Part shown: positions 1 through 58,300 of the stretch, in pieces
Layout of the letters: every line of letters starts with the position of its first letter
How positions within the stretch are numbered: position 1 is the first letter of the stretch
Source: a virus
Length of the DNA stretch: 64,000 bases
Virus record (IMG/VR): IMGVR_UViG_3300050014_001197
Span: 64,001 to 128,000 of that record
Direction: 5' to 3' (one strand)
Position numbers and translations under genes: made by a program
Notes under the pieces: model-generated
Seen by the model: only the letters and a program-made list of their open reading frames with translations
What the model was told of the DNA's origin: nothing
The model's database searches: none

Positions 1-1145
1 TCGGAAAATCCAGAATTGATGGTTTCCCAATGTTTAAAACAGGTACATTTAGTGGTGGAGCAGGTAACTTAGCCGATGTATTTGATGGAACAGCTTCAAT
101 GACTGTTTATACAGATTCATCTGTATTTGCAATTGCAAGTTATCCTACACTTATATCTACATTGGAGGATCAGGTTCAAGGATTTGCTGGTGCTGGTCAA
201 ACAGACGCTGGTAAATGGGATGGAACTTTCGTAAGTGGAACTACTCTTTATGAACCAATGGAAAGAGGAGTTGGTGAAATGGAATATCCAAGAGCACTTG
301 GCCTCCAGCTATTCACTAAATTTGTTCAGGTTGGAACATATCAGGTATCAGTTTCTGTAACCCAGGAACAGATTCAAGACCTTAACAAACAATGGGGTAT
401 TGATGTTATAGCAATGGTAGAAAACGCTGGTATCAACGAAATCAGCCAGAGCATTAACAAACACATCCTTTCAAGACTATTTGGTCTAGGATGGAAAAAC
501 CACATTGCAGCTAATAATGTTGAAGGTATTAACCTTAACATGAACTGCGTATCAACGGGTTCTCTTACATCAGCTGCTTATGCTTATCCTAATGGAGATA
601 CAGCTTTCTCAACAGAATCAATGACAATTCCAGGTTTCGCAACTTACGCTTCAGTCGTTGGAGCTACATTCGAAAACCAAGATACTCTTATCAAGAGAGT
701 TATGGCTCAGATTCTTGCTGCTGGTAATGTTGTTATGCAAAGAGGTAGAAGAGGTCCTGCTAACTTTATAGTTACAAACCTTAAACTTGCTACCGCTCTT
801 CAGAGCAATGCACAGTACACATTTAGCCCAATAGCTAATACTTTCAACCAGAACAATGGTTCACTTTATCCACTAGGTACTATCGCTGGTATGACCCTTT
901 ATGTAGATCCTAACATGATCTATTCTGACACAAGAGTACTTGTAGGAAGAAAAGGTTCATCTGACGAACCAGGTGTTATATTCTGCCCATATTTAATGGC
1001 TGAATCAGTTAAGCTTATCACAGAAGGAACTGGTGCTCCTAAGGTTATCATCAAAACAAGATATGCTCTTGTAGATGCTGGATGGCATCCTGAAACGCAA
1101 TATCTCACACTTTTCATCAACACAAATTCTGGTGGACTTATTTAA
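1..1145 (+). CDS. Major capsid protein, T4 gp23-like (C-terminal ~380 aa; the ORF is open to the window edge and its 5' end lies upstream)
   Basis: No in-frame stop between nt 3 and the ATG at 30. Segments align to T4 gp23: RGRRGPANFIVTNLKLATALQS vs TGRGEGNFIIASRNVVNVLASVD; GVIFCPYLMAE...PKVIIKTRYALVD vs AGIYYAPYVALT...PVMGFKTRYGIGIN. G/A/T/S-rich composition and GC-richer codons fit a highly expressed structural gene. A strong terminator follows. Confidence 0.85.
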   Translation, partial: GKSRIDGFPMFKTGTFSGGAGNLADVFDGTASMTVYTDSSVFAIASYPTLISTLEDQVQGFAGAGQTDAGKWDGTFVSGTTLYEPMERGVGEMEYPRALGLQLFTKFVQVGTYQVSVSVTQEQIQDLNKQWGIDVIAMVENAGINEISQSINKHILSRLFGLGWKNHIAANNVEGINLNMNCVSTGSLTSAAYAYPNGDTAFSTESMTIPGFATYASVVGATFENQDTLIKRVMAQILAAGNVVMQRGRRGPANFIVTNLKLATALQSNAQYTFSPIANTFNQNNGSLYPLGTIAGMTLYVDPNMIYSDTRVLVGRKGSSDEPGVIFCPYLMAESVKLITEGTGAPKVIIKTRYALVDAGWHPETQYLTLFINTNSGGLI

Positions 1146-1272: not shown

Positions 1273-1896
1273 ATGGAACTTATAGATCCTAATTTTTCGA
1301 TGGTTTCAGGAAATATGACCTCCAATAATTATGGTGGAAATATTGATAATTTTAAGAATATTGTTACTGCTGTAAATGCTCAACTTATTAAAATTGACAC
1401 TAGTGGTAATATTGGATTAAGCATTGCTTATATAGATGCTTCATTAGCACCTTTTGCAACTAATGCTTCAATAGGGATTGCTAATTTTCTACACGAAGCT
1501 TCTTTAGGCAATGACTTTGTATGGAACGGAACATTTCTTGAAGTAAGCATAGCTAGTATTTCGGATGCTGTAACTAAAGAATATGTAGATGCTTCAATTG
1601 CTGTATTTACCACTAATGTTTCAGTAGGATTAAAATTTGTAAATACGGATGCTTCTATTGTTGCTCTTCAGACAGCAGATAAAACATTTGCAACTAATGC
1701 TTCAGTTGGATTAAAATTCATAAATTCGGATGCTTCAATAGGGGTAAGAATAAGATTTATCCCTGGTGCTGGGGCAGGTCTGAGAGATGCAAGTTTAGCA
1801 GTTTATGATATGACGGCAGTTGATACATCATTATATCTTAAAGTTGCAGCAGGAACTTTTTATCAATGGAAACTTACAGCAGGTTCATTAGGATAA
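1273..1896 (+). CDS. Repeat-containing fibre/decoration-like structural protein
   Basis: Directly downstream of the capsid gene. Tandem ~25-aa repeats DASIAxFTTNASVGLKFVNxDASI, also visible as tandem DNA repeats at 1436-1760. Flanked by terminators. Confidence 0.45.
   Translation: MELIDPNFSMVSGNMTSNNYGGNIDNFKNIVTAVNAQLIKIDTSGNIGLSIAYIDASLAPFATNASIGIANFLHEASLGNDFVWNGTFLEVSIASISDAVTKEYVDASIAVFTTNVSVGLKFVNTDASIVALQTADKTFATNASVGLKFINSDASIGVRIRFIPGAGAGLRDASLAVYDMTAVDTSLYLKVAAGTFYQWKLTAGSLG
1436..1760. repeat. Tandem in-frame ~75-nt coding repeats (at least 4 units) inside the fibre-like gene
   Basis: Repeated gatgcttca...actaatgcttca(g/a)t(a/t)gg(a/g)tt(a/g) blocks. Confidence 0.6.
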
Positions 1897-1934: not shown

Positions 1935-2570
1935 TTATAGATTTTGAAATTCTGTTAGAATTCTTTTTTTCCAATAGGTCATATAGAGTTGTTCGGTATT
2001 TTCTGAAACCAGTTGATCCAATAGTTCCTGTGTAATTTCTTCCCAACTATTTACTTGAATAATAGATAAATTATAATCTCTATAAATTCTGTGTTTTAGA
2101 ACAATTGGAATACAGCCTAAATAAAGAGCTTCCCATAATCGATGAGTATCAACTCCATTTCCCGGAGGACAAATAACATATTTATGATGAGACATATTTT
2201 CGCAATATTGTTCAAAAGAAAGTTTTTCTTCCCAGTAATAAGGAACTTTTATTTTTTCTAGTATTTTCTTTCTATAATCATTTGTTAACCCCCAATTACA
2301 ATAAATTCCAGATTTAAGATTTGATTTTAATTTTTCAATATTTTGAAAAAACCATTGATGATTTGTAAATTTTCCTTTAGAACCTCCAGTATGATTTTCT
2401 AATCCAATGGGAATAGAAATAAGATTAGGATCGTCATAAGTTGCATTTTGAGCATACCATTTTTTTATACATGACGGTTTTAATGAAAATCTTGCAATAT
2501 TTAATGGAAGATCCGACATATGAGAGATGAGAATATATTTTCGTCCGGATACTCTGATGTAATTAAACAA
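1935..2570 (-). CDS. Putative glycosyltransferase
   Basis: First gene of the minus-strand glycosylation cluster. C-terminal RLWEALYLGCIPIV resembles the exostosin/GT-B C-terminal acceptor motif. No stronger match by eye. Confidence 0.3.
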   Translation of the reverse strand: MFNYIRVSGRKYILISHMSDLPLNIARFSLKPSCIKKWYAQNATYDDPNLISIPIGLENHTGGSKGKFTNHQWFFQNIEKLKSNLKSGIYCNWGLTNDYRKKILEKIKVPYYWEEKLSFEQYCENMSHHKYVICPPGNGVDTHRLWEALYLGCIPIVLKHRIYRDYNLSIIQVNSWEEITQELLDQLVSENTEQLYMTYWKKRILTEFQNL

Positions 2571-2693
2571 AATATCTAAAAAATCAGTTTTACAATAAAT
2601 TATTGAATTTTTTCGAAATAATTCAGCAGATAATTCGTTTCGATCTCTATCTATTTATTTTAAAATTAGCTATTTCGGAAAAGGAATTTCCAT

Positions 2694-3299
2694 TTATAAA
2701 ATTGTACATACTTCGCAAATTAAAAAGCCATTTCGATCTTTTAGATTATCATCTAATATTTTAAATTTATCGGGATTTTCTAAAATAAATTTTCTAGTTT
2801 GAGTATGTTTATTAGAAATTGTATCATCTAAAACTATAAATTTGCATTTTTTCCATAATTTATTAAATTCAATATAACCTGAGAATTCTCCTCCATCAAT
2901 AATATATAAATCTATTTTTTCTGGTAATTGATCCAAAACATATGGAGAGGTTTTAATCCATCCAAGATCTTCTTTTAACCAATTTTTAAGAGTATCATTT
3001 TCAAGAATATTCATCTTCGGGGCTAATTCTTGATATGTTACAATTGTTCCGTGAATAATTTTAAAGGATGAAGGTAAAAATACTAAATTTACTTTTGCTT
3101 CTCCAATTCGGATTAAATTACATTCTAAAGACCAAACTTCTTTTTTAGTACCAATAACTGCATCGTAAATACATTTTGTAGAACCCATTCCATTCCAGGT
3201 TCCTATTTCAACAATGGTCTTTACTTCTAGAAGTCTAGATAATTCATAAATTTTTTCTCCAAGTATGGATCCCCTATTAATTTGTCCTATCCTATCCAT
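2694..3299 (-). CDS. Class I SAM-dependent methyltransferase (Methyltransf_24/TylF-CmcI-like)
   Basis: Motif I-like IVEIGTWNGMGST and an acidic post-motif (IIDGGEFSG), paralogous to the methyltransferases at 6152 and 7501. Confidence 0.5.
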   Translation of the reverse strand: MDRIGQINRGSILGEKIYELSRLLEVKTIVEIGTWNGMGSTKCIYDAVIGTKKEVWSLECNLIRIGEAKVNLVFLPSSFKIIHGTIVTYQELAPKMNILENDTLKNWLKEDLGWIKTSPYVLDQLPEKIDLYIIDGGEFSGYIEFNKLWKKCKFIVLDDTISNKHTQTRKFILENPDKFKILDDNLKDRNGFLICEVCTIL

Positions 3300-3302
3300 A
3301 TC

Positions 3303-4004
3303 TTAGTTTTTAATTTCAATTGTTTGTCCTACGAAAGTTCCATCGGGATTACGAACCCTAAATAATTTTTCATTTCCAGTTATTCTCAGTTCTTTGAGAT
3401 TCGCAATGTGAGCTATATGGGTATTAACAATTCTTGGCCAAATATACTTCCATAAGAATGGTTGATCAGTGTTAAAGAATTTCCCTCGGGGCTTGTAAAT
3501 ATCCTGAAAAGTTAAACTCCCAATATATTCATTTAACATATTATCGTATTGAAATTTTATCTTATCAATAAATTTTGAAGTAGCCCCCCACATTCCTCCG
3601 CATATTTGAAAATTATGAACTGCATTATCTCTCATAATATGAAATTCTTTGCCACTTTCTTCCCATTCTTTTACAGCATCAGCTTCTCTTGGATTTAATC
3701 TTGAATCGGTATCGCGTACGATGAATCTTTCAATGGAATCATCTTTAAGAGGCTCAAATCTCCAGAAGAGACCATAGCATCCATCGGATTTATTCATCAT
3801 TATTATTTCAGCACCGTCACGTTTCATATATTCAACGATATTTTTGGGAACCGTTTCATCTAAGTAAAACCTACACGTCCAACCTGAGTAATATTTAGAT
3901 GCTAATAGGAGATTCTCGTAAGCTGCCTCAACATACTTGGGGGTTTTACCCCAAATAGAAAAAGATATTATTTTATTCATAATTAAACAGCTAATACTTT
4001 CCAA
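3303..4004 (-). CDS. Putative DxD glycosyltransferase
   Basis: N-terminal IISFSIWG and VRDTDSRL (DxD-like). Sits inside the glycosylation cluster. Confidence 0.35.
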   Translation of the reverse strand: MESISCLIMNKIISFSIWGKTPKYVEAAYENLLLASKYYSGWTCRFYLDETVPKNIVEYMKRDGAEIIMMNKSDGCYGLFWRFEPLKDDSIERFIVRDTDSRLNPREADAVKEWEESGKEFHIMRDNAVHNFQICGGMWGATSKFIDKIKFQYDNMLNEYIGSLTFQDIYKPRGKFFNTDQPFLWKYIWPRIVNTHIAHIANLKELRITGNEKLFRVRNPDGTFVGQTIEIKN

Positions 4005-4693
4005 TTTAATTTAGTTGTAGGAGTTCCTCCTTCTCCCACTAAATGAATTTTTACATATTTATGAAAAAATAAATTCTCGTCATTTCTTAATTTTATGCAA
4101 TCGATTAAATTAAAAAAAGAAGAATCTATACAATGAATTTCTTTTGCTCTTTCAATCGCATAAAGAAAATTAAAAATGCTTATATCAGATCTAGTGGGTC
4201 TTATTATTTTAATATTTTTGGGAAGTTTATCTTTCAGGATTGGGCGATCTTTATCATCATGAACAAAGATATATTCTTCATTTTTCTTTAAATCTAATTC
4301 ATTAAAATATACATTTTTTTCTGCTTCGCAATTTCTTTCAACATAAAAACGATTCCATTTATCCTCAAAGTTGACATTAGCCATTTTATAAAATATTTGA
4401 TCGAATCTACCTAGCGGATCTCTTTGTAACTCCTCGTGTAATTTAGTATGGCCAATAATTAGATAGTTATTAGTTGGATTAATTTGCATGAATTGATGAA
4501 TATCCGAATCATCCATTAATATAATGGCAATTTTTGCATTATCCCTAAACATATGCATAACATTTTTAGCATTTTTGGGTTTAACAAATAAATATACTCG
4601 ATCATACATATCAGCATAAACTCTAGTCAATCCATTGCAAATAATTTGATCCCCCATACCTAAATGTTCATATATGTATATTGAGTTTTTCAC
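3983..4693 (-). CDS. Hypothetical protein in glycosylation cluster (possible glycosyltransferase)
   Basis: ORF only. No recognisable motif beyond its context. Confidence 0.25.
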   Translation of the reverse strand: MKNSIYIYEHLGMGDQIICNGLTRVYADMYDRVYLFVKPKNAKNVMHMFRDNAKIAIILMDDSDIHQFMQINPTNNYLIIGHTKLHEELQRDPLGRFDQIFYKMANVNFEDKWNRFYVERNCEAEKNVYFNELDLKKNEEYIFVHDDKDRPILKDKLPKNIKIIRPTRSDISIFNFLYAIERAKEIHCIDSSFFNLIDCIKLRNDENLFFHKYVKIHLVGEGGTPTTKLNWKVLAV

Positions 4694-5520
4694 TTTATAT
4701 ATGGTTTTGAATAAATATTCATGGATTCTTCTTCTCTTGGATCATTGTTAAAAATCTTATTTGTATTATAACATTCTAGATTAATATTCACTATCATACT
4801 AGTTTGAGATAAATTGGAAGTTCCTTTTACCAAAAATTTACAGCGAGCAAGAGCCTCCATATCTAGTATAGCTTCCAATCCTTTTATATAGCCAGATTGT
4901 TCTTTCATGTGATGATGTATGGAAATATTTCCGGATCCCCTTATTCTTGTTGTTGGAATAATTAGATTTCCATATCTTTTGATATAAAGACTATACATAT
5001 CAGCATCATCGGTAGCTAAATATATTTTATTATAAGAATTTTCAGATAATGCTTTGTCTATAACGGTAAATACTTTTTTATCATCTACCGGCCATAATCG
5101 TTTATCACTTTCGGTATATCGATCTGTTTTTCGAATATGCAAACCTAAAATAGAATTATAGTCATTGAAATATGATAATGTTTTATTAAGTATTTTTTTT
5201 GTTATCTCATTATAATGAATATATTTTGTGTATATTTCATGTAAGGTTTGGCGAATATTCATGCCAGGATATAAATCCAAAACTTGCGGCATATCTTTTG
5301 CATAAAGATACTCGATGTTTCCCTCGATGAGATCTATTTGCTGATAATAATATTCCCATACATTTGGACCTTTTATTTGATCCCAGTATAAATTAAATCT
5401 TTGCGGTAAAAAAACTCCTACCTTTTCTCCTTTAAGCTCTTTCCATTTACGCAAATCTCTAAGTACATGCCATGTTAAAACAGCGTAAAATCCGCTAAGG
5501 TCTCCAGTGATTACTTTCAT
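4690..5520 (-). CDS. Fucosyltransferase-like protein (GT11/GT23/GT65 superfamily)
   Basis: LGLHIRKTDRYTE matches the HxRRxD motif of alpha-1,2/alpha-1,6/O-fucosyltransferases. Confidence 0.45.
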   Translation of the reverse strand: MKVITGDLSGFYAVLTWHVLRDLRKWKELKGEKVGVFLPQRFNLYWDQIKGPNVWEYYYQQIDLIEGNIEYLYAKDMPQVLDLYPGMNIRQTLHEIYTKYIHYNEITKKILNKTLSYFNDYNSILGLHIRKTDRYTESDKRLWPVDDKKVFTVIDKALSENSYNKIYLATDDADMYSLYIKRYGNLIIPTTRIRGSGNISIHHHMKEQSGYIKGLEAILDMEALARCKFLVKGTSNLSQTSMIVNINLECYNTNKIFNNDPREEESMNIYSKPYIK

Positions 5521-6155
5521 TTTGTCCAGTATTTATAAGCATTAGAATAAGGGGCTCCGTGAATACCAAACGGAACAATATTTTCATCAATTATTTCTTC
5601 TTGACTAAAAGATAAAGCCATCTTTACAGAAGGGTATTTTAAGTTGGATTCCGTGTTTAATTTATTTGAATAGTATCCATCCTCATTAAAAACTAATGGA
5701 AGAGGAATCAACAGATATTTTTTACTAACAAATTCAGCTAAACTTTTGCTTCTTAAACAAAAACCCCCATTTCCTATGCCGGGGTTATTATTTTTATCTC
5801 TCATGACTAAGTCCTGCCATGGAGCTCCTATATAATCATAATTTAACCATTTATCATTCCATAATTCCGGATGAATAATATATCCATCAGGTTGAACAAT
5901 AATAAAATGAGGGGTATTTATATAACGATGAAGTTCTTTTATACAAAAAAGATTTAGATCTGCTAAACTATTTAAAGATCGGGATTTTCGTATTTCATGA
6001 ATAGAATGGGTAATGGGTTTATCCGTTATAAGCATAGATTTTTTAAATTGAAAATGACCATCTATGGTTTGTAATGTATCATCTAAAATTTTAATCATAG
6101 ACTCAACTTTAGGACCCATATTTATTGCAAGTAAAGTTACATCAAGAATTTTCAT
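5517..6155 (-). CDS. Hypothetical protein (glycosylation cluster)
   Basis: ORF only. Overlaps the start and stop of its neighbours by 4 nt, the usual operon-style coupling. Confidence 0.3.
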   Translation of the reverse strand: MKILDVTLLAINMGPKVESMIKILDDTLQTIDGHFQFKKSMLITDKPITHSIHEIRKSRSLNSLADLNLFCIKELHRYINTPHFIIVQPDGYIIHPELWNDKWLNYDYIGAPWQDLVMRDKNNNPGIGNGGFCLRSKSLAEFVSKKYLLIPLPLVFNEDGYYSNKLNTESNLKYPSVKMALSFSQEEIIDENIVPFGIHGAPYSNAYKYWTK

Positions 6156-6817
6156 GGTTTATAAATTCCGATACCACAGCTAATAGAATATACAAATTCA
6201 TGTATTTTTTTAGAAGGATCTAATTCATTCCAGAATTTCTTGACTCCCAAATCTTTATTTACAATATCGTGAAATATTAAAAATCCATTAGAATTTAAAA
6301 TTTTTAATGAATTTTCATAATCTTTTTTAACACCCTCATATCTATGATCAGCATCTATAAAAATAATATCATAAGTGTTAGTTCTGCCAAGATTAAAAAA
6401 ATCATCTGTAAAATAATTAAAATATTGGACTTCAATATTTTTAACTTTTTTAAGATATTCTACTTTATTTTGTATTGAAAAAGGCTGATCTGAAAATCCC
6501 TGAGCATTTCTCTGATAATCACAATTATCTACAGCATGACAAATTTTTATATCAGGTTGAAATAAAGAACATAATAAAAAAGATCCTCCTTGTCCTACCC
6601 CCAATTCTAAATATGATTTAGCTTTAGTCTCTTTGAGAAATAATAATAGCCTTGCATATTCTTCGGGATTCTGTTGAAGCTGTAAATTATCTTTTCCCCC
6701 TACTATTCCCGTCAATCCTCCGCCAGTAGTAGGATTAGATAAGCCAGCTGAAAATCTTATATAAAAGATTAATTCTGCTAAAGAATAAGATAACAATTCT
6801 TCGATACTTGTAGTCAT
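6152..6817 (-). CDS. Class I SAM-dependent O-methyltransferase
   Basis: LELGVGQGGSFL (motif I), DIIFIDADH...GFLIFHDI (post-I and motif IV-like). Confidence 0.6.
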   Translation of the reverse strand: MTTSIEELLSYSLAELIFYIRFSAGLSNPTTGGGLTGIVGGKDNLQLQQNPEEYARLLLFLKETKAKSYLELGVGQGGSFLLCSLFQPDIKICHAVDNCDYQRNAQGFSDQPFSIQNKVEYLKKVKNIEVQYFNYFTDDFFNLGRTNTYDIIFIDADHRYEGVKKDYENSLKILNSNGFLIFHDIVNKDLGVKKFWNELDPSKKIHEFVYSISCGIGIYKP

Positions 6818-6827
6818 TTTTATAAAT

Positions 6828-7496
6828 TTATAAGGTTTCTTGATAATATTGCATAGTATCTATTCTTGCTCTAAATTGTCCATCAATATCAGAAAGATCT
6901 GCTATTTGAAATGCAGTTAATGGCAAAAATGTATAGGATCTTAGAGTTTTATTAAGTATAATATCATTAACAGCATCATCTACTGTAGTATTAAACTTGA
7001 GCATTTCATCTGCTACTTTTTTTATTCCTGTTTCTTTAACTATATAAGCATGAGTGCAATCTGTAAAAGAAGAAGTCCAAACATGATCTGAAATCTTCTT
7101 CATTTCTGTAGGTCTTCTAATTGCTCCCCCAATAAAAAGATGTTCCCAATCTAAATTTTCTACTTCTTTTTCATAAATTTCCATTCGCTGATTAAAATCC
7201 TTTGAAAGAACAACATCATCCTCAAGCATTAAAACTTTTTTATATCCTAGAGATTTAGCCATCTTTAATCCGGCAATATGAGAAAATGCGCATGCTGCAA
7301 CATTCATATTCATTGTAGTCCAAGAAAAATAATTCCTTTTGGACGGGGTTATTTTTATATTAGCTATTAACTTTCCATCAAAAGCAGGATAAATTAAAAG
7401 ATTTTGAACTCCTCTTTTTTTGAGATGATCAATAACTCTTTTTGCTCTATCCTCTCTTCTTTCAAGATTGATTAAAATTGCAACATCGTAAAGCAT
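6828..7496 (-). CDS. GT25 family glycosyltransferase
   Basis: MLYDVAILINLERREDRAKR is the typical GT25 N-terminus (I-x-V-I-N-L-x-x-R-x-D-R). The ORF can be read up to 7625 but would then overlap the upstream gene by 125 nt, so the internal Met at 7496 is preferred. Confidence 0.55.
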   Translation of the reverse strand: MLYDVAILINLERREDRAKRVIDHLKKRGVQNLLIYPAFDGKLIANIKITPSKRNYFSWTTMNMNVAACAFSHIAGLKMAKSLGYKKVLMLEDDVVLSKDFNQRMEIYEKEVENLDWEHLFIGGAIRRPTEMKKISDHVWTSSFTDCTHAYIVKETGIKKVADEMLKFNTTVDDAVNDIILNKTLRSYTFLPLTAFQIADLSDIDGQFRARIDTMQYYQETL

Positions 7497-7500
7497 ATTT

Positions 7501-8043
7501 TTATTTATAAAATATCCAACATCCCCCAAGATATGATTGAGCTCCAAAAGAAAAATATTCATCAACAGCTTGATGAACTCCGCAGGAGGGTTCGTTATAA
7601 TCATGGCCTGCAATAATACCTCCATTTTTAATTTTAGGGAACCAGAGTTTTAAATCTGCTTTAATTCCGGAATATTCATGATCTCCATCTATAAAAAGAA
7701 AATCAATAGATTCATCTTTAAAATCCTTATGAAGTATTTTGCTATCTCCTCTAAGGGGTTGAATATAGGATTTAACTGGTTCGATATTTTTTGTAAACAC
7801 TTCATAAAGTGTTCCTGCTTTTGTATCTGGTTCATTTTCGTATCCGCATTCTCCATTGAAAAGATCAACTGTATAAAAGAGTATTTTCTTACCGGATTCT
7901 TTTATTTTTTCAGCCATATAAATGGCAGATCTTCCTTTCCAAGTTCCTATTTCAATAAAAGTCGAACCATTGCTAAATTTCTGAACCATGTTACTATAAA
8001 GAATCTGAAAGGTAAAAGACCCTTCTACATTTTCCCAATACAT
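7501..8043 (-). CDS. Class I SAM-dependent methyltransferase (Methyltransf_24-like)
   Basis: FIEIGTWKGRSAIYMA, FLFIDGDHEYSGIKADL, GGIIAGHDY. Confidence 0.55.
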   Translation of the reverse strand: MYWENVEGSFTFQILYSNMVQKFSNGSTFIEIGTWKGRSAIYMAEKIKESGKKILFYTVDLFNGECGYENEPDTKAGTLYEVFTKNIEPVKSYIQPLRGDSKILHKDFKDESIDFLFIDGDHEYSGIKADLKLWFPKIKNGGIIAGHDYNEPSCGVHQAVDEYFSFGAQSYLGGCWIFYK

Positions 8044-8047
8044 ATTT

Positions 8048-8902
8048 TTATTTTTTAACTATTTCAACTAACCATTCTTCAAAGTTGGATAAATTCCACT
8101 CCAAGCTATGTTTTTGTTCATCTGTAAATACAGGTTCTTCGTAAAAAGCTTTAAATCTCTCTGGGTTTTGATCCATTTTTTGTACAACATCAGGAAATCT
8201 CCCTCTTGTAACATCGATAAAAGCTCCTTTGTTCCAATCTTCTCCAACTCTTGGATCCCCGCAATATATTGGCATTGCACCTGCAAGAAAAGCATCCATA
8301 AGTTTTTCTGTACAATAATATCTATATGGCGTATTTTCATAAGCCATCATGAATTTATGAGGACGTTTCAAAAAGAATTCATCCTTAGCATCCCTCCAAT
8401 ATCTTCCTTCAGAGGCTTTTTGTAAAGCAAAATCATTTGTCAAGCATCGTCCATAAGATTTTATAGATTTATATTGGCTCAATTGCTGAAAAGCCGAATT
8501 TCTCATAAAATTAGAAGGATTCGAAACCGTAAATGCACACCATTGTTCAAACTGTTCTTCTTTCCGGTTCAATCGATTATAAAGTCTTTCTCTTAGCTCG
8601 GGTTTTAGTAAAATATAAACTTGCCATAGAGGTAATCTATAATTAGTTGTAGAATGAGGATCAAAACTAATACTATAATTAGTTTGAAATTGAGAAGGTC
8701 TCCAATTTTCTGCAAGTATTAAAACTTTCTTGCATTTATATTTCGGTGCTTCAACCATCTTATTAAAAATAGAATGAAATAAAACATCGGGATGCTCCTT
8801 ATCCAAAACTACTTCGAAATGGTTTTTAAGAATAGGACTTATAAAATCTTCATCTTTCCACTCAGGCCAAAAATCGGCAAACCATATTTTTAACTTATCC
8901 AT
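8048..8902 (-). CDS. GT10 alpha-1,3-fucosyltransferase-like protein
   Basis: FMMAYENTPYRYYCTEKLMDAF matches the GT10 signature F-x-L-x-F-E-N-S-x-x-x-x-Y-x-T-E-K. Confidence 0.6.
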   Translation of the reverse strand: MDKLKIWFADFWPEWKDEDFISPILKNHFEVVLDKEHPDVLFHSIFNKMVEAPKYKCKKVLILAENWRPSQFQTNYSISFDPHSTTNYRLPLWQVYILLKPELRERLYNRLNRKEEQFEQWCAFTVSNPSNFMRNSAFQQLSQYKSIKSYGRCLTNDFALQKASEGRYWRDAKDEFFLKRPHKFMMAYENTPYRYYCTEKLMDAFLAGAMPIYCGDPRVGEDWNKGAFIDVTRGRFPDVVQKMDQNPERFKAFYEEPVFTDEQKHSLEWNLSNFEEWLVEIVKK

Positions 8903-9339
8903 GGAAGAGGTTTTATTTGTTGCTGTAATGTTTCATTTTTTCCTTTTAAATATGCTGCATATTCTCTTGGAGTTTCAAATCCTGTTTTTTCTAGATGTTC
9001 TTTAGTCTTTTGCTTTTGCTCTTCTTTTTCTTTACGCCATTTTAAACCATCTTCAGTAACAACTTCTTTGACGTTTTTTCCATCGTGGATGACATACCAA
9101 TCATCGAAACATTGTTCTTTCTTATCATCAATCCACACAAATTGTCGAGTATACCAGTAAGTTTTTCCCCAACAATCACACCCTTGATCCTCATGCTCTT
9201 CAAACACAAGTTTGCAATCTTGAACTTTTTCAATTATTTCCTCTTTCATTCTTCGGGTACTACAATCCAGCATATAATATAAAATAATATAAACGGAAAT
9301 CCTGTAAATAGTGTTCCCAATACAAAAATAATTCTCCAT
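8890..9339 (-). CDS. Hypothetical protein
   Basis: ORF in the operon. Cys/His-rich (DCKLVFEEHEDQGCDCWGK). Confidence 0.3.
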   Translation of the reverse strand: MENYFCIGNTIYRISVYIILYYMLDCSTRRMKEEIIEKVQDCKLVFEEHEDQGCDCWGKTYWYTRQFVWIDDKKEQCFDDWYVIHDGKNVKEVVTEDGLKWRKEKEEQKQKTKEHLEKTGFETPREYAAYLKGKNETLQQQIKPLPWIS

Positions 9340-9437
9340 AATACTGGATCCATATTTGTATAACTACCAATACCTGCGCAAACACCAGCAATAGGGCCAT
9401 TTCCTAATCTAAATAATTTATTCATAGTTTTTTTCAT
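9246..9437 (-). CDS. PspC-domain small membrane protein
   Basis: GVCAGIGSYTNMDPVLWRIIFVL matches the PspC domain (G-x-C-A-G-L-A...D-P-T-L-V-R-L-L-F-V-L) and is followed by a TM helix. Overlaps the neighbouring ORFs; coding is supported by the motif. Confidence 0.5.
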   Translation of the reverse strand: MKKTMNKLFRLGNGPIAGVCAGIGSYTNMDPVLWRIIFVLGTLFTGFPFILFYIICWIVVPEE

Positions 9438-10152
9438 CGATTCCTAGCATGAATATATTTCCACCTCCAACCATTGGGGTTTGTCCATAATTCTTATTTT
9501 CCCCTCTTATATTCGATGTAAGCTCTTTTGTTGGAATTACAAGAGGAGGTGTTGCAATATAGAAATTAAATCCTAAATTTGTCATCATAAACAATGTAAT
9601 ACTATCTGCAATCATTGGCTGAGCATCTGCAATTGCAATATATCTTTCCATTGATCCGCGATTCATCCCATACGCAAGAATTGACCAAGAAGCAAATCCT
9701 TTTACCCATCTTGGCTTAACTCGAGTATTTTCGGGTTGAAACGCAGACATATAGGAATATAAAAGAATTCCATCTGCATCTTCTGGAATAGTATCCATAT
9801 ATTTCGGAAGCAGGGTTTCCCAATTCTTGGAAAATGCGCAATCATCTTCAAATATAAAAAGACTTTTAACTCCTTCAAGCAAAGCTGTTTTAATTACATG
9901 ATAATGAGATTGTAATGCTCCGAGTTCATTTGGAAAAGCAGGATTAAACCGAACTTTCCTACCATCTGGAGAATTATATTTTACGTTATAAGGTTCTATA
10001 AGAGCTTTTGCATATCCTGGAATAACAGGACGAAAGAATTCTGCTTCAATATCATGAGTTTCAAATTGAAAATGCATATAATCAAATTTGTCTTCTCGTT
10101 CTTTTAAAGATATACAAACTACTTTTTCGTATTTTTCATTAATTAAGCTCAT
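9418..10152 (-). CDS. GT25-like glycosyltransferase
   Basis: VVCISLKEREDKFDYM at the N-terminus (GT25-like) and FIFEDDCAF (DxD). Confidence 0.5.
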   Translation of the reverse strand: MSLINEKYEKVVCISLKEREDKFDYMHFQFETHDIEAEFFRPVIPGYAKALIEPYNVKYNSPDGRKVRFNPAFPNELGALQSHYHVIKTALLEGVKSLFIFEDDCAFSKNWETLLPKYMDTIPEDADGILLYSYMSAFQPENTRVKPRWVKGFASWSILAYGMNRGSMERYIAIADAQPMIADSITLFMMTNLGFNFYIATPPLVIPTKELTSNIRGENKNYGQTPMVGGGNIFMLGIDEKNYE

Positions 10153-10502
10153 ATATGTAATATGTTTTTGATAACTTCCGGATATTTATCCAGGATTCTT
10201 TGTTCAAGCCAATAACAATAAGAAGCTTCATAGATATTTTGAATCCCCCATTGATAATATTTTCTACGTCCACTTTTATAATAGGATTTCTTTTTTGCTT
10301 GATAAATCGGAGCATGATGATTTTGAAATTGATATGCTCGCTGAATCCACCGGGGATTTCCAGCATGTTCTTCTAACCATTGACCATATTCTGAAGTTGG
10401 ATGTCCATGGTTTAAAACTTTTTGCATCCAATAATCATAAGACCACATTGGCAAACTACCAGTGTCCATATGAAAAGCAAATCTTAAATCTGTTTCTGTC
10501 AT
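10149..10502 (-). CDS. Hypothetical protein (first gene of the minus-strand glycosylation operon)
   Basis: ORF only. Confidence 0.3.
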   Translation of the reverse strand: MTETDLRFAFHMDTGSLPMWSYDYWMQKVLNHGHPTSEYGQWLEEHAGNPRWIQRAYQFQNHHAPIYQAKKKSYYKSGRRKYYQWGIQNIYEASYCYWLEQRILDKYPEVIKNILHI

Positions 10503-10583
10503 ATTTTAAATATTATAATTTCTAATAAAATCATCTATGTTATTGTGTTTGGATATTATATCAGCAAATTTAAAATAGTTTCA

Positions 10584-10610
10584 CAAAAAAAGGAGAAATT
10601 TCTCCTTTTA
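10584..10610 (-). terminator. Rho-independent terminator (minus strand) downstream of 10608..11057
   Basis: Palindrome GGAGAAATTTCTCC followed on the minus strand by TTTTTTTG. Confidence 0.65.
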
Positions 10611-11057
10611 ATACATTTGAACATCATATAGTAATCCATCTAGCATTTCTTTAAACCAATTTGGATCGGGTTCAAATTTTTCCATGAATATAATATAATT
10701 TCCAATCACATCATCTATATCAATATAATTATTATCTTCTCTTACTTTGAAAATAAGATTTTTTACAAATATTCTAGCTTCCGGATTAGAATAGAAACTC
10801 CTATCTGTTCGTTTATCTGCTTCATCAAAATGTTTATTAAATGCACTACTTAATTCTTTTCCGGCTTTTGGATCTTCTTTTCTTCCAGTTGTCCAACGAG
10901 AAAGTTCTTCCAAATCAGATTTTGTTTTTTCCAATTCCTCCTGGCCTATACCAGCTTCAAGTAATCTTTTTTGGACAACATCGGACATCCCTATCCTCAT
11001 ATTTTTAAGAGGGTCTTCACCCCCTCTTTGAAATTCTATAGATTCTTTTACGATCAT
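10608..11057 (-). CDS. Leader-motif family protein (N-terminal MIVKESIEFQRGGEDPLKNMRIGM)
   Basis: Member of the ESLNFERG leader family at the far left of the window. Confidence 0.6.
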   Translation of the reverse strand: MIVKESIEFQRGGEDPLKNMRIGMSDVVQKRLLEAGIGQEELEKTKSDLEELSRWTTGRKEDPKAGKELSSAFNKHFDEADKRTDRSFYSNPEARIFVKNLIFKVREDNNYIDIDDVIGNYIIFMEKFEPDPNWFKEMLDGLLYDVQMY

Positions 11058-12025
11058 TATGCTTTTTTGAGGAAAATATCGAGTTTACCTTTTCGTTCTT
11101 CTCTTTGTTTTTCCTTAGCTTTATTTTCAGCTTCAGCATGTTTATCTTCCTGAACTTGTTTAAATTTAGCTATTTGTTCTTTCATAGAGGATTTAAAGGA
11201 ATTTTCAAAGAAATCAGTAAATTGTTTTATAACTGATGGATTATCAGTTCTGTAAACTTCTTCTCTTTCGCTTCCACTCATATCAAATACTGCAAAAAAT
11301 TCTTTTGTTTCAGGTTTGGATTCAAAATCTTCGTCCTCTGGGGTTTCTTTTTCACCCTCTGGAGTTTCTTCTCCAGCAAGTTCTTCACCTTCTGGGGTTA
11401 CTTCATCACCAAGTTCTTCTGGAGCTACTTCACCTTCTGGTTCAGCAAATTCAGGAGTTTCTTCTTCCCCACCTAATTCAGGTTGATCAAAGGTATCTTT
11501 TTCTTCCTCGGGTTTTTCATCCAATTCTAGATCTAAACCTTCTTCTTCATTAAGGCTTTCTTTAATTTCTTTTTCTTCAGGTTCTTCTGGTTCCTTTTTT
11601 TCTTCTTCTGAAGTTTCAGATTCTTCGTGTTCTTCACCCTCTTCTTTTTCTTCACCCTCTTTTTCTTTGTCCACTGCTTCAATTTGAGCATTAATTTCTT
11701 CTTCACTCAAAGCTTCATCAGGAAGATTAAGAACTCCAACTACATAGTCGCTATCGAAAAGTTTATAAAGAGAACCTCCTTCATCAAATTTATCTTTAGC
11801 CTCTTGATTTTCTTGCCAAAATTCTTTATATTTAATAATTTTATCCCCTGCAGCAGATTTAAATCTTTCAAGATTATCCTGAAGTTTCTTAATTACATCA
11901 AGTCCCTCTGTTTCTTCTTCAGATTTCATCTTTTTCTCATCGACAGGTTCTTCTTTCTTAGCTTCTAGAACTGAGAAAAATTGCCAATCGAGATATTGGC
12001 CTAAGGATTCTTTTACATGTTTCAT
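11057..12025 (-). CDS. Extremely acidic Glu-rich protein
   Basis: Long runs such as EEKEEGEEHEESETSEEEKKEPEEPEEKE. Candidate DNA-mimic or internal head protein. Confidence 0.5.
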   Translation of the reverse strand: MKHVKESLGQYLDWQFFSVLEAKKEEPVDEKKMKSEEETEGLDVIKKLQDNLERFKSAAGDKIIKYKEFWQENQEAKDKFDEGGSLYKLFDSDYVVGVLNLPDEALSEEEINAQIEAVDKEKEGEEKEEGEEHEESETSEEEKKEPEEPEEKEIKESLNEEEGLDLELDEKPEEEKDTFDQPELGGEEETPEFAEPEGEVAPEELGDEVTPEGEELAGEETPEGEKETPEDEDFESKPETKEFFAVFDMSGSEREEVYRTDNPSVIKQFTDFFENSFKSSMKEQIAKFKQVQEDKHAEAENKAKEKQREERKGKLDIFLKKA

Positions 12026-12907: not shown

Positions 12908-14602
12908 ATGGATTTATTAAACTTAATTGCCGAAAAAGAATTAGATGAGATCATTTCTAAAGAATATGGGGATGGAAATCTTCTATTAGAAAAAGATGAT
13001 GATTCTGCATTGACTACTCCTTTTAATAGAATGCTTTCATTTCCTGCTCGTGCTATTCGCTATAGAAAAGCAAAAAATATTATGATTCGCTATTCTAAGA
13101 AAATTATTACTAGAGTTGAAAGAATCATTAGAAAGTTTGAAGGGGAATTAGATAAATCTATTACTCAAATTACTGAAAAAGGAAAAGATCTAGAATTACA
13201 ACTTCAAAAAGCTAAATCGTCTAATGACGAAACAGAAGTAAGAGCCGTCGTAAATCAGCAAAAGAAATTTAAATCTGAAGTTGAAAAAAATCAGGAAGCT
13301 CGAATTCAGCATCTTCAGCAATCTATTGATAATCTCATTCAAGCTTATACTGCTGGAATTCACAAAAGAATTGAGCAACCTGGATATGTTCTTAAAGTAG
13401 AGCTTTCTGATAAGGGGCAAGCTGATCTTAAATTCCTATGGGAAGAATATGTTTCCAAGATTAAACAGCAAACTTATGAAAAACTCATCAAAATCATTAA
13501 CAATAAACATGTTAAGGGTTTAGAAAAAATGATTGCTCGTCTTGAAGTTGAAATTGAGGATGCTGAAGATAGAAGATATAAAAACAAAAGATCCCGGGAT
13601 GTATTAGCTAGAGAAGAAAAACAAACAGTAAAACAAAAGCTTGAACAACCAAAAACAGATTTTGAAAAACTTGTTGCTTATTTGGATGATGAACTTAAAA
13701 ATTTCGGGGATGGTCTGGAAGATGAGTATACAATATCTGTTGATGAAGGTGGGGAATCCAAAGTCTATAATATTACTTTTGCTTTTGATATGGATTCTGA
13801 AACCATAGAGGTTACTTATTACGAAGAAGATTCAGAAATTCCTATTCGAAAAGAAGAAATTAAAAATACTTCAGATGCTGATCATATTATAGAAGATATT
13901 GAAGCTGCAAATGAAATAGGATCTAATGATAAAAAAGAAAAATTTGGAGAAAAACTTTTAAAAGAGCTTGCTTCTAAATTAGAGATTCTTCTTAAAAATC
14001 CTTCAAGAGATACTCGTAAAAAAATAGGGGATGAATTAATTGATGCTTATAGAAATAATCCTAAAGCTTTTTCAGAAAAAGCAATTGAAATTCTTTTAGA
14101 GGATCCCGATATTTATAGAGAAAAAATTAAAGCAATAGAAAGAGGGATATCCAATCCTTCTTTAATCGATCTTCTTGTTCAATTAGGAAAGGAACTTAAA
14201 GGAGGACCTTCTATAGATCCAGTAAAGGAACTTGAAAAAGCTGAGAAAGTTTTTACAGAATTTGATGAAATTCTTCTTAGCCAAGCAAAAGATAGAAGTC
14301 TTTCTGAAAATGATTGGGAATTAATGCTTTCCGATATAATTTTTGCTACAAGCAATAATATGGTATCTTCTATCGAAAGATTTGTTAAACTACCGGGTAT
14401 TTCTAAGGAAAAGAAAATTAAAGCACTTTCTAATGCAAAGAGAGTAATCAAGCTTCTTAAATATGCTGCTGCTAAAGATCCCAAGAGTAAATCTGCAGAA
14501 GTTATTAATAAAATTAAAAAATATCTCGGCTCAGATTCTGTTGAAAATATATTACTTGAGTCTTTTGTTTCTTTTAAACTATACAATAAACTTTATTCAT
14601 AA
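12908..14602 (+). CDS. Large coiled-coil K/E-rich protein
   Basis: 564 aa, heptad-rich, no catalytic motif. Confidence 0.45.
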   Translation: MDLLNLIAEKELDEIISKEYGDGNLLLEKDDDSALTTPFNRMLSFPARAIRYRKAKNIMIRYSKKIITRVERIIRKFEGELDKSITQITEKGKDLELQLQKAKSSNDETEVRAVVNQQKKFKSEVEKNQEARIQHLQQSIDNLIQAYTAGIHKRIEQPGYVLKVELSDKGQADLKFLWEEYVSKIKQQTYEKLIKIINNKHVKGLEKMIARLEVEIEDAEDRRYKNKRSRDVLAREEKQTVKQKLEQPKTDFEKLVAYLDDELKNFGDGLEDEYTISVDEGGESKVYNITFAFDMDSETIEVTYYEEDSEIPIRKEEIKNTSDADHIIEDIEAANEIGSNDKKEKFGEKLLKELASKLEILLKNPSRDTRKKIGDELIDAYRNNPKAFSEKAIEILLEDPDIYREKIKAIERGISNPSLIDLLVQLGKELKGGPSIDPVKELEKAEKVFTEFDEILLSQAKDRSLSENDWELMLSDIIFATSNNMVSSIERFVKLPGISKEKKIKALSNAKRVIKLLKYAAAKDPKSKSAEVINKIKKYLGSDSVENILLESFVSFKLYNKLYS

Positions 14603-14604
14603 AT

Positions 14605-15309
14605 ATGTCCGGAACAAAAATTATATCATTAGAGGAGTTTGAAAAAAAACTTAATGAGGATTTTTACAATCCATTTGATGAAGAAGATAAATTTAAGAAA
14701 AAAGAACCCCAACAGGTAAAAGATTTTGGGGGATTTTTTAAACTTAAAAAGGAATCTTTTAATCTGGGAAGAGTAGAATATTCTAAACGTCCCGGTGGGG
14801 ATTATACTATTATGGGAAAAACTCAATTTGCCAAAGGGGAAGTTGTAGAAATTTGCCCGGTAGTTCTTGTTGGGGAAATTGCTAAAACCATTGAAAAAGT
14901 TAAGGATCTTATTTTTGAACTTGATAAAAATAAGGGTCAATGGGGTCTTGTTTTAGGATATGGCTCTCTTTATAGGCATTCGGATAAACCTAATTTAGAT
15001 TATGCTTATAATCCAAAAAGTCGACAAATGTATTTTATAACAAATCGTCCTATTAGTATGCACCAAGAACTTACTATTAACTACGGATCTGATTATTGGG
15101 CAGAAAGAACAAACTTTAATACAGTTGCTGAAATACCAGGTGCTAATCAAGGACTTGAACCAGCTCCAAAACCTGAGAATGAAAGTGCAGTACAACCAAA
15201 TTCTACTGATATAGATGCAAATGCAACTAAAATGGCTTTTGGACAACCAAATGCAACTCAGAATCCAGCGGTATCGGGGATACCCATTCAAGGTATAGGA
15301 CAACAATAA
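14605..15309 (+). CDS. SET-domain protein lysine methyltransferase
   Basis: LYRHSDKPNLDYAY (N-H-S-C-x-P-N-type motif) and ELTINYG (E-L-x-x-x-Y), with an upstream GEVVEICPVVLV beta-strand region. Confidence 0.7.
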   Translation: MSGTKIISLEEFEKKLNEDFYNPFDEEDKFKKKEPQQVKDFGGFFKLKKESFNLGRVEYSKRPGGDYTIMGKTQFAKGEVVEICPVVLVGEIAKTIEKVKDLIFELDKNKGQWGLVLGYGSLYRHSDKPNLDYAYNPKSRQMYFITNRPISMHQELTINYGSDYWAERTNFNTVAEIPGANQGLEPAPKPENESAVQPNSTDIDANATKMAFGQPNATQNPAVSGIPIQGIGQQ

Positions 15310-17656: not shown

Positions 17657-17729
17657 ATATTTTTCTTATTGAATCAAAACTTTTTAAGATTTAATACGTA
17701 AAACATATAAACATTTAATACATAATCTA

Positions 17730-18662: not shown

Positions 18663-18664
18663 GA

Positions 18665-19423: not shown

Positions 19424-19424
19424 T

Positions 19425-20362: not shown

Positions 20363-20372
20363 TAACTAAATA

Positions 20373-21500: not shown

Positions 21501-21511
21501 AATAAATCAAA

Positions 21512-21844: not shown

Positions 21845-21845
21845 T

Positions 21846-58281: not shown

Positions 58282-58300
58282 TGTAGTTCAAGTTTTATTT

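Follow-up and report, generated by a model that had tools for sequence, protein, structure and literature searches.

Beside its capsid gene, a Lak-related huge phage carries a hypervariable cassette of glycosyltransferase and O-methyltransferase genes for a probable strain-specific sugar coat

The DNA analysed here, referred to as the window, is a stretch of 64,000 nucleotides corresponding to positions 64,001 to 128,000 of the IMG/VR virus record IMGVR_UViG_3300050014_001197. Close to its left end lies an island of genes for glycosyltransferases and methyltransferases, which is the subject of this report. A preliminary description of the window had placed a co-directional gene island at 1935-10502, and these coordinates proved exact: position 10502 is the start of the first open reading frame (ORF), position 1935 is the stop of the last, and all genes lie on the minus strand. 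The same description had counted ten genes. We find 14, named g14 (first) to g01 (last), and they are densely packed: neighbouring genes overlap by 4-20 nt or stand 2-10 nt apart, except at the junction before g01. The content supported by our searches amounts to up to eight candidate glycosyltransferases and three O-methyltransferases dependent on S-adenosylmethionine (SAM), two of them clear and one divergent. The genes, and the signals found upstream and downstream of them, are as follows.

10588-10609, minus strand: hairpin with a U-tract, 3' of the gene that precedes the island (RNA fold)
10555-10584, minus strand: promoter-like site with an extended -10 element (10/12 match with TG; such matches are not enriched over shuffles)
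10149-10502, minus strand: g14, 117 aa, function unknown, the operon's first gene
9418-10152, minus strand: g13, GT25 glycosyltransferase (Pfam Glyco_transf_25)
9246-9437, minus strand: g12, PspC-domain miniprotein of 63 aa with a single hydrophobic segment
8890-9249, minus strand: g11, 119 aa, function unknown
8048-8902, minus strand: g10, GT10 alpha-1,3/4-fucosyltransferase-like protein of 284 aa (FucT_N and Glyco_transf_10)
7501-8043, minus strand: g09, Methyltransf_24 / TylF-like O-methyltransferase (Pfam)
6828-7496, minus strand: g08, GT25 glycosyltransferase (Pfam Glyco_transf_25)
6152-6817, minus strand: g07, Methyltransf_24 / O-methyltransferase (Pfam)
5517-6155, minus strand: g06, DUF5672 protein, candidate transferase (Pfam)
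4690-5520, minus strand: g05, GT23 (NodZ/FUT8-type) fucosyltransferase-like protein of 276 aa (family profile)
3983-4693, minus strand: g04, predicted compact GT-B fold, GT9 heptosyltransferase-like (AlphaFold2 and Foldseek)
3303-3980, minus strand: g03, predicted GT-A fold of the GT8-like clan, DxD motif RDTDSR (AlphaFold2 and Foldseek)
2694-3299, minus strand: g02, probable divergent Methyltransf_24-like O-methyltransferase (family-level matches)
1935-2693, minus strand: g01, GT-B C-terminal domain (GT47 / RXYLT1_C / GT10-C-like), N-terminus interrupted (Pfam)
1904-1928: bidirectional terminator hairpin that separates the island from the convergent fibre gene (terminator scan and RNA fold)

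For g06 to g14, the gene model agrees with the independent calls available for two public contigs, Logan SRR35911552 and JGI 3300048762. Both contigs span only g06-g14, and both encode a GT10 protein identical to g10. The sizes called there, from g14 to g06, are 117, 244, 63, 119, 284, 162, 222, 221 and 212 aa. The real start of g08 is at 7496 and not at 7625, as in the independent call of 222 aa, and an alternative start of g09 at 7989 gives the 162 aa of the public call. The PspC ORF at 9246-9437 overlaps the beginning of a mechanically longer ORF of 149 aa for g11. The real start of g11 is probably the ATG at 9249, which forms an ATGA overlap with the PspC stop codon and gives the publicly called size of 119 aa.

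The clearest of the glycosyltransferases is g10. It matches the Pfam families FucT_N (7e-14, 52.5 bits against a gathering cut-off of 27.2) and Glyco_transf_10 (1.1e-12, 48.5 bits against 23.9), which bears out the GT10 fucosyltransferase named in the preliminary description. Its alignment to the Helicobacter pylori fucosyltransferase (FucT) structure 2nzw (1.1e-11) covers the ENxxP, SNPxxxxRN and YxTEK segments, such that LAENWRP, SNPSNFMRN and YCTEK of g10 stand opposite GENESP, SNPNAPIRN and YVTEK. The roles of the residues in the alpha-1,3-FucT motif (FxxxxENxxxxxYxTEK) and of a nucleotide-binding arginine were reportedly worked out by Sun et al. in 2007. By homology, g10 is thus a GT10 alpha-1,3/4-fucosyltransferase-like protein, and with 284 aa it is a minimal catalytic unit compared with the H. 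pylori FucT chains of 371-420 residues in the PDB. Copies that are 60-70% identical occur in related phages, and a search of 185,579 species genomes with two patterns drawn from the g10 GT10 alignment found no relative.

A second predicted fucosyltransferase, g05, had been called GT11-like on account of its motif HIRKTDRY, an assignment that the homology searches replace. The protein taken alone matches NodZ (8.8e-6) and FUT8_N_cat (9e-6, 25.2 bits) in Pfam, both under the gathering score. Its family comprises 1,646 representatives at E<=0.001, and a profile built from 101 members matches the NodZ structure 2hhc at 1.7e-24 over chain residues 6-306 of 330, as well as FUT8 at 1.2e-18. When the members are searched singly, 85 of the 101 match FUT8_N_cat and 77 match NodZ. 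The HxRxxD motif is conserved in the family, H128 and R130 being invariant and T132 and D133 nearly so. The Glyco_transf_11 family is matched neither by the protein at E<=0.1 nor by any of the 101 members at E<=0.001, which leaves the assignment to the GT11 alpha-1,2-fucosyltransferases unsupported. Because the family profile matches NodZ and FUT8 and none of it matches GT11, g05 is classed at the family level as a GT23-type fucosyltransferase.

The two GT25 enzymes of the preliminary description were both recovered, with Glyco_transf_25 matches of 1.5e-12 for g08 (48.3 bits) and 2.9e-10 for g13 (40.8 bits) against a cut-off of 24. In the PDB, g08 is nearest the catalytic domain of procollagen galactosyltransferase 1 (ColGalT1; 8.3e-9), followed by Mimivirus R655 (3e-4), and g13 is nearest human procollagen galactosyltransferase 1 (8.7e-6). 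A solved bacterial GT25 is matched by g13 only, at an E-value of 0.5. Procollagen galactosyltransferase 1 is a protein glycosyltransferase. Copies of g13 with 59-73% identity adjoin the GT10 gene in the related phage loci L003-L007 (L numbers are our handles for loci).

Two further DxD-type glycosyltransferases had also been proposed. Further glycosyltransferases are indeed present, and there are more of them than had been listed, for a total of eight candidates. Neither g03 nor g04 matches any family in Pfam, PHROG or NCBIfam, and profiles built from first small alignments of g02, g03 and g04 match no PDB sequence. Since these sequence-profile searches came back empty for g03 and g04, structure prediction was needed. 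The AlphaFold2 model of g03 has a predicted local distance difference test score (pLDDT) of 95.6. Searched with Foldseek against the PDB, it matches AgtA (3.5e-6), glycogenin, UGGT and the fucosyltransferase WrtF, and among viral structures it matches a Mimivirus LCMiAC01 domain (2.6e-19, TMq 0.85, 32% identity) and an Aureococcus virus protein. D90 and D92 are invariant in its family. On the strength of this model, g03 is assigned to the GT-A glycosyltransferases of the GT8-like clan. The g04 model (pLDDT 94.1) matches the GT9 structure 3tov (7.6e-5), WaaF 1psw (TMq 0.62), WaaC and TibC, and thus its predicted fold is a compact GT-B closest to the GT9 heptosyltransferases.

The remaining two candidates are g06 and g01. 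For g06, Pfam gives DUF5672 at 2.5e-22, above the curated cut-off, and no PDB sequence matches; we regard it as a candidate transferase. A relationship between the g03 family and DUF5672 was also considered, and hhalign shows none. The last gene, g01, matches Exostosin_GT47 (4.1e-8) and RXYLT1_C (2.8e-6). Its N-terminal region is interrupted by an in-frame TAG at 2670-2672 and a TAA at 2655-2657 on the minus strand. Twelve related loci have homologues of 260-296 aa whose N-terminal parts can be aligned in frame through both stops. The ancestral ATG, at 2691-2693, abuts the g02 stop. Because the stops sit in a stretch that is still homologous, in frame, to intact homologues, g01 is probably decaying or truncated and looks recently inactivated or shortened.

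Of the three Methyltransf_24/TylF-like methyltransferases in the preliminary description, two stand clearly and the third is more weakly supported. The Methyltransf_24 family is matched by g09 at 3.6e-22 (79.7 bits) and by g07 at 1.8e-13 (51.7 bits), against a cut-off of 26.3, with additional matches to TylF (2.2e-5) for g09 and to Methyltransf_3 (3.3e-6) for g07. The g02 protein itself has no Pfam match. Within its family, 18 of 40 members show weak Methyltransf_24 matches (best 6.7e-5), and the family profile reaches the family-3 O-methyltransferase structures with 3ntv at 0.0024. It shares the motif IDxxxIDGxxExSG with g09, and hhalign relates the two with a probability of only 24%. This moderate support suggests that g02 is probably a divergent Methyltransf_24-type O-methyltransferase.

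The PspC-domain protein is likewise as described previously. The match of g12 to TIGR02978 (3.9e-15) concerns the domain only and lies under the full-length cut-off, and a precomputed PF04024 match agrees. We found no PspC homologue in the related loci; the absence of a g12 counterpart from every related island indicates a lineage-specific addition and not a core component. For g11 and g14, no family match was found in Pfam, PHROG or NCBIfam. A homologue of g11 is 72% identical in L017, and homologues of g14 that are 35-40% identical lie upstream of the GT25-GT10 pair in L005 and L007. PHROGs, NCBIfam and PADLOC searches of the unannotated island proteins gave no match except PspC.

The island is a single unit bounded by two hairpins. 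The one at 1904-1928 folds with -13.5 and -14.1 kcal/mol (z -3.8 and -4.5), and the one at 10588-10609 with -9.9 kcal/mol (z -2.4). Promoter scans were uninformative: sigma-70-like sites number 66 in the window against 69 expected, and the T4 late-promoter motif TATAAATA occurs at 17 sites against 15.2 expected, with no enrichment. The GC content of the island (29-33%) is like that of the rest of the genome (29-36%) and so bears no mark of recent foreign insertion.

On the capsid side, the following features precede the island.

30-1145, plus strand: major capsid protein (MCP), gp23 family, the island's conserved left flank (Pfam Gp23)
1166-1194: terminator-like hairpin with a 12-pair stem, 3' of the capsid gene (terminator scan)
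1273-1896, plus strand: fib207, a small repeat-containing fibre-like protein of 207 aa (motif counts)

The capsid ORF matches Gp23 at 6.8e-32 over profile positions 92-350 only. Since the reading frame stays open as far as the edge of the window and the match begins at profile position 92, its N-terminal part, probably a propeptide, is likely to have been cut off by the start of the window. Among 50,697 phage records, the best matches of the capsid protein are Prevotella Lak megaphages, with 54% identity, and capsid proteins 72-88% identical are encoded on about 34 IMG/VR contigs, including contigs of 405 kb and 316 kb. Nucleotide similarity to the 50,697 records was not detected. The name T4-like, given previously, fits only loosely, through the gp23-family capsid; the nearest named relatives are nonetheless the Lak megaphages, and even with Lak-A2 and Lak-C1 the capsid protein is the sole match within 20 kb on either side of the capsid gene. 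We therefore place this phage, from its capsid protein, among Lak-related huge phages and not with the classical T4 relatives. Lak-style recoding of TAG was considered and rejected, as dropping TAG as a stop extends ORFs no more than dropping other stops, and the standard code was kept. TAG is rare as a stop codon in the window (3 of 85 long ORFs). A Shine-Dalgarno-like 4-mer precedes only 3 of 72 window genes, whose upstream regions are A-rich and G-poor; this scarcity suggests a Bacteroidota-type host, without proving one.

The fib207 gene stands between the capsid gene and the island. The protein contains DAS[IL] five times, F[AT]TN[AV]S[IV]G three times and six NxS/T sequons. The preliminary description had called this adjacent repeat gene rich in sequons, and its NxS/T density of 2.9% is in fact the highest among 50 window ORFs, the median being 0.55%. 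It has no match in Pfam, PHROG, NCBIfam or the phage database, and its repeats are seen at the protein level only, no tandem repeats being found in its DNA. Relatives in other phages (L016:12534-13196, L017:6974-7396, L019:4495-4932 and L020:11209-11646) share an N-terminus, EKTNxxLTxDV, and a C-terminus, DSSLYL..W, around central repeats that are wholly different. Those in L019 and L020 are collagen-like, with GxT/GxQ triplets in the 405-kb phage. On visual inspection, neither the DAS[IL] nor the DTSL repeats of fib207 conform to D-(S/T)-(A/I/L/V/M/T), the motif for O-glycosylation in Bacteroidota. The protein may be a capsid decoration protein or variable head fibre, and it is a candidate glycan acceptor.

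We compared the island with its counterparts in 37 loci (the window and 36 relatives), counting island proteins of at least 100 aa. Almost all of the related contigs show the same arrangement of a conserved ORF of about 780-816 aa, the capsid gene, and then ORFs of 200-400 aa on the opposite strand. The 300 proteins of these island blocks fall into 107 clusters, 54 of them singletons. Several families of the window recur: g03 (the window and 13 other loci), g04 (the window and 12), GT25 and g01 (12 loci each), and GT10 and MT24, the Methyltransf_24 family (six each), and sub-blocks such as GT25-GT10 are conserved among related loci. The families recur in a patchy way that disagrees with the phylogeny. 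Few island genes are shared between the window and the phages whose capsid proteins are 84-88% identical, and the best matches of GT25 (80% and 73%) and g04 (69-71%) sit in phages of 74% capsid identity. The far flank is marked by an acidic protein, x322 (11057-12025), which lies 9.9 kb from the capsid gene in the window and 13.1 kb from it in L003; in two other contigs the distance is 22.8 kb and at least 25 kb. Measured in loci with both ends available, the block is therefore about 10 to at least 25 kb long. In short, the slot beside the capsid gene stays the same and the genes that occupy it are reshuffled among close relatives in the manner of a serotype locus, a pattern that suggests diversifying selection on the glycan.

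The islands of the relatives contain further sugar-related genes. GDP-mannose 4,6-dehydratase (GDP_Man_Dehyd, 6e-134) is found in nine loci, and a DegT aminotransferase (2e-61), UDP-galactopyranose mutase (GLF), UDP-glucose dehydrogenase, nucleotidyltransferases, FkbM, TylF and radical-SAM enzymes, and GT2 and GT8-like proteins also occur. GIY-YIG/NUMOD3 homing endonucleases are present in 13 related islands (for example L039:16897-17613), and Cys-rich ORFs of 539-580 aa lie between the capsid and fibre genes in L015:11246-12988, L021:8038-9657 and L023:1546-3228. These endonucleases and inserted ORFs mark the slot as a hot-spot for mobile elements. Unexpected Pfam matches in the relatives' islands include a RuBisCO_large-like protein (1.9e-31), DHBP synthase (9.7e-76), peptide deformylase (5.5e-39), an E1 dehydrogenase component and DUF6165. 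In L017, a second, divergent capsid paralogue with 30% identity to the window MCP lies at the far end of the island (14195-15172).

The same transmembrane scan, a crude prediction, was applied to the island proteins, to bacterial loci around g04 homologues and to those genes of the phage loci that lie outside the islands. Among the 300 island proteins, a single transmembrane segment is predicted in just four, and more than one in none. In the bacterial loci, 62 of 603 proteins have at least two segments and 49 have at least four, and ABC-transporter and polytopic proteins are visible there; among the non-island phage genes, 9 of 307 have at least two. The absence of any polytopic protein excludes both a self-contained locus for surface-polysaccharide export, of the Wzx/Wzy or ABC type, and a seroconversion module of the Gtr, Oac or Wzy type. 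It also shifts the balance in favour of a cytoplasmic acceptor, for example a protein of the virion.

Homologues of g04, g03 and MT24 are found in bacterial glycan clusters. Those of g04 are 31-39% identical in glycan clusters of Patescibacteria, also known as the candidate phyla radiation (CPR), and the family is common in their metagenome-assembled genomes (MAGs; L091-L136, for example L092:4121-9263 and L098:2847-13358). The CPR cassette, which is conserved, combines a g04-like gene with homologues of two other phage-island families (E1 alpha/beta-like) and an alcohol-dehydrogenase-like gene. Gmd and FkbM genes are often near, and ABC-transporter genes adjoin it in L098. Judging from these homologies, the glycan toolkits of the phages and of CPR bacteria appear to share parts. 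A MAG from Fibrobacterota (L118:1263-10433) has the order GT9, GT2, GT2, epimerase, g03-like, GT1-like, g04-like and Methyltransf_24, followed directly by the flagellar rod genes flgB and flgC. By analogy, this order may recall a flagellar glycosylation island; a single case proves nothing.

Elsewhere in the window, two further gene groups were noted. On the plus strand at 16970-23204 are a dTMP-kinase-like gene (phrog_761, 2.8e-18), an N6/N4 DNA methylase (1.2e-8) and an asparagine-synthase-like amidotransferase (7e-34), a cluster that may serve DNA modification and is unrelated to the island operon. On the minus strand at 56662-61700 are an AAA-type ATPase (phrog_1297, 1.3e-48) and a DUF2201 metallopeptidase/VWA protein (8.7e-22 and 5.4e-17), with two genes of 239 and 308 aa in between. 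Most other large ORFs that were scanned, including those of 1117 and 1226 aa, have no family match.

From these results, we consider it probable that the island makes a sugar coat specific to the strain, with the virus particle as its likeliest carrier; to virion glycosylation we give a probability of roughly 45%. The sequences themselves show the gene content, the boundaries, the hypervariability and the lack of polytopic membrane proteins; the donor sugars, the type of glycan, the acceptor and the biological role are what we infer. The island would act as one transcription unit of soluble cytoplasmic enzymes, together with the tiny PspC-domain membrane protein. During infection the enzymes would use nucleotide sugars and SAM stepwise and would produce a short branched oligosaccharide. 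That such a product would be fucosylated and O-methylated, as proposed previously, is a reasonable expectation from the enzyme composition. GDP-fucose and UDP-hexoses would be supplied by the host in the present case, and several relatives encode their own GDP-mannose dehydratase and aminotransferase. The acceptor would have to be reachable in the cytoplasm, the likeliest being either the gp23-type capsid protein or fib207, and new virions would in that case be coated with a glycan peculiar to the lineage. Both GT25 enzymes are nearest procollagen galactosyltransferase 1, and g08 and g03 have mimivirus links; this affinity to protein-glycosylating and giant-virus systems favours virion glycosylation. 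The position of the variable, sequon-rich fib207 between the capsid gene and the island likewise favours a virion acceptor in the cytoplasm. More tentatively still, the slot may serve throughout the Lak-related clade as a capsid-side serotype locus whose purely cytoplasmic enzymes cover the capsid or the head fibres in fucosylated and methylated glycans that differ between lineages, using parts common to giant viruses and Patescibacteria.

Several points weigh against a glycan on the virion. No initiating enzyme of protein glycosylation was recognised in the island (no GT41 N-glycosyltransferase and no oligosaccharyltransferase), and no genes for GDP-fucose synthesis or other glycan genes were found elsewhere in the 64-kb window. 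Bacterial GT10, GT25 and GT9 enzymes are classically enzymes of lipopolysaccharide (LPS) or lipooligosaccharide synthesis and are likewise soluble or peripheral, so lipid-linked acceptors are compatible with the missing membrane proteins. The position beside the capsid gene may be a mere permissive insertion hot-spot, homing endonucleases being frequent there. In a more distant clade, with capsid proteins about 40% identical, the site contains no large island, and a few members carry a block of DUF5672, GT9-like and GT10 genes that is separated from the capsid gene, on its upstream side, by a few genes. Finally, similar islands in pelagimyophages were read by their authors as serving host O-chain modification (PMC7029224).

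The two functions proposed in the preliminary description, glycosylation of the virion and modification of the host surface, are still the two leading ones; the lack of polytopic proteins shifts the weight towards a virion acceptor, and sequence proves neither. In the second of them, which we consider rather unlikely, the soluble enzymes would work from the cytoplasmic side of the inner membrane and modify lipid-linked intermediates of the host, whether of the LPS core, the O-unit or the capsular repeat. Flippases and ligases of the host would export the altered glycan, and superinfection would be blocked or progeny spared adsorption to lysing cells. The published reading of the pelagimyophage islands points the same way (PMC7029224), as do several features of the present one: g10 is nearest the H. 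pylori FucT that makes LPS Lewis antigens, Pfam describes the GT25 family as 'LPS biosynthesis', g04 resembles LPS heptosyltransferases, g04, g03 and MT24 have homologues in bacterial glycan clusters, a PspC-domain membrane miniprotein lies within the operon, and the scarcity of Shine-Dalgarno sites (3 of 72 genes) suggests a Bacteroidota-type host rich in LPS and capsular polysaccharide (CPS). However, none of the 300 island proteins is a polytopic protein resembling a flippase, polymerase, ligase, Gtr protein, acyltransferase or initiating transferase, and homologous bacterial loci do have such proteins. Known seroconverting phage systems use polytopic membrane proteins and are temperate. 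Moreover, the PspC gene is not kept in relatives, many g04 homologues belong to Patescibacteria, which have no LPS, so that the g04 family is not tied to LPS, and a change of the whole cell surface would presumably be slow within a lytic cycle.

In a further reading, the slot simply tolerates insertions and gathers horizontally acquired sugar genes and homing endonucleases as accessory 'morons', with assorted targets or partly non-functional, and with no coherent pathway. The 54 singletons among the 107 clusters, the GIY-YIG/NUMOD3 endonucleases of 13 loci, the unrelated RuBisCO_large-like, DHBP synthase and peptide deformylase genes, the in-frame stops of g01 and the lineage-specific PspC gene would all be at home in such a collection. 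We judge it improbable, since the content is strongly skewed towards glycosyltransferases, sugar O-methyltransferases and nucleotide-sugar enzymes, the genes form one densely packed operon in which stops overlap starts, several families recur in 12-14 loci each, sub-blocks such as GT25-GT10 are conserved, and the GC content of the island equals that of the rest of the genome. Least credible of all is that the island enzymes place sugars on modified phage bases and thereby evade restriction. Phage glycosyltransferases that add glycans to DNA are known (Pyle 2024, as cited in PMC12619734), and the dTMP-kinase-like, DNA methylase and amidotransferase genes lie only 7-12 kb away; these genes nevertheless belong to a separate, divergent transcription unit. 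The GT10, GT23, GT25, GT9-like and TylF/FkbM proteins, like the GDP-mannose dehydratase and DegT proteins of relatives, belong to glycan-building families, and known DNA glucosyl- and arabinosyltransferases belong to other families than those of the island. In addition, neither a base hydroxymethylase nor a thymidylate-synthase-like protein was matched in the Pfam scans of the island or among the top families in the census of the relatives.

Islands of this general kind have been described, so that the earlier remark that the locus is unusual at this scale in a tailed phage was overstated. T4-like pelagimyophages and cyanomyophages have hypervariable islands rich in glycosyltransferases within their structural region, termed a 'host recognition cluster' (PMC7029224). 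The pelagimyophage islands resemble ours in the gp23-type capsid, in being a non-syntenic block among conserved structural genes, and in their many glycosyltransferase and deoxy-sugar genes. They lie between VrlC and gp14, measure 34-45 kb, contain tail-fibre genes and are dominated by GT8. In contrast, the present island abuts the capsid gene, varies from about 10 to at least 25 kb, carries GT10, GT23, GT25, GT9-like and O-methyltransferase genes, and has no recognisable tail fibres; the only fibre-type gene is the small fib207 alongside it, which has no database match. Glycosylation of capsid and tail-tube proteins in mycobacteriophages is cited in PMC12619734 (Freeman et al. 2023, cited also in PMC11256854), and the cluster F1 mycobacteriophage Maravista has two putative glycosyltransferases (PMC11256854). 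These too are glycosyltransferases of tailed phages, proposed to decorate capsid or tail proteins. They differ in the actinobacterial host and in number, two glycosyltransferases standing against eight candidates and three methyltransferases in a hypervariable huge-phage locus.

The comparison with giant viruses drawn in the preliminary description has gained support from the mimivirus-like fold predicted for g03, the match of g08 to Mimivirus R655 and the nucleotide-sugar pathways of relatives. Chloroviruses glycosylate their capsids in the cytoplasm with glycosyltransferases of their own, including fucosyltransferase and 2-O-methyltransferase domains (PMC7826918). With the chloroviruses and mimiviruses (PMC7826918, PMC9614988) the island has in common soluble virus-encoded glycosyltransferases, fucosyl and sugar O-methyl activities (predicted in our case), clade-specific gene content and virus-encoded synthesis of GDP-sugars, the last of these in relatives of the phage. 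Those systems, however, belong to eukaryotic giant viruses and have experimentally determined glycans, whereas we describe a tailed phage of bacteria, and the 64-kb window contains no sugar-nucleotide genes.

Bacterial O-antigen or capsule loci and flagellin islands are similar in being strain-variable cassettes of glycosyltransferase, methyltransferase and nucleotide-sugar genes between conserved flanks. In flagellin glycosylation islands, cytoplasmic enzymes are encoded beside the structural gene whose product they modify. O-antigen and CPS loci encode an initiating transferase as well as transporters of the Wzx/Wzy or ABC type, and the 300 phage island proteins include nothing of the sort. 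Seroconverting temperate phages (Gtr, Oac or Wzy-type) also carry genes that alter a glycan. They do so with one to three genes, whose polytopic membrane products act on exported O-antigen, and the present island has no polytopic protein. Glycosyltransferase orthogroups have been reported in the core of the Lak-sister 'moraphages' (PMC12619734), and we found no published description of this locus in Lak-related phages within an incomplete coverage of the literature. Glycosyltransferase-rich islands in large phages are thus already known; what is new is a hypervariable cassette free of polytopic membrane proteins beside the capsid gene in a Lak-related clade.

Whatever its target, the island offers compact soluble enzymes for biochemistry, namely a 284-aa GT10, a 276-aa GT23 and two families without a Pfam model (g03 and g04), and the slot after the capsid gene provides a simple genomic marker with which to survey the diversity of glycans among huge phages that have not been cultivated. 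Were the host envelope the target, the island would represent a large membrane-protein-free route by which a lytic huge phage rewrites host glycans. If the glycan is instead on the particle, huge phages would count among the viruses that make a glycan coat of their own, as chloroviruses, mimiviruses and some mycobacteriophages do. The hypervariability of the island would then point to an unrecognised selection, for example by grazers, by host defences that sense particles, through adhesion to mucus or particles, or through avoidance of dead-end adsorption. Virion glycosylation, if true, would extend the autonomous glycosylation of giant viruses to the viruses of bacteria and would imply strong diversifying selection on the surface of the particle.

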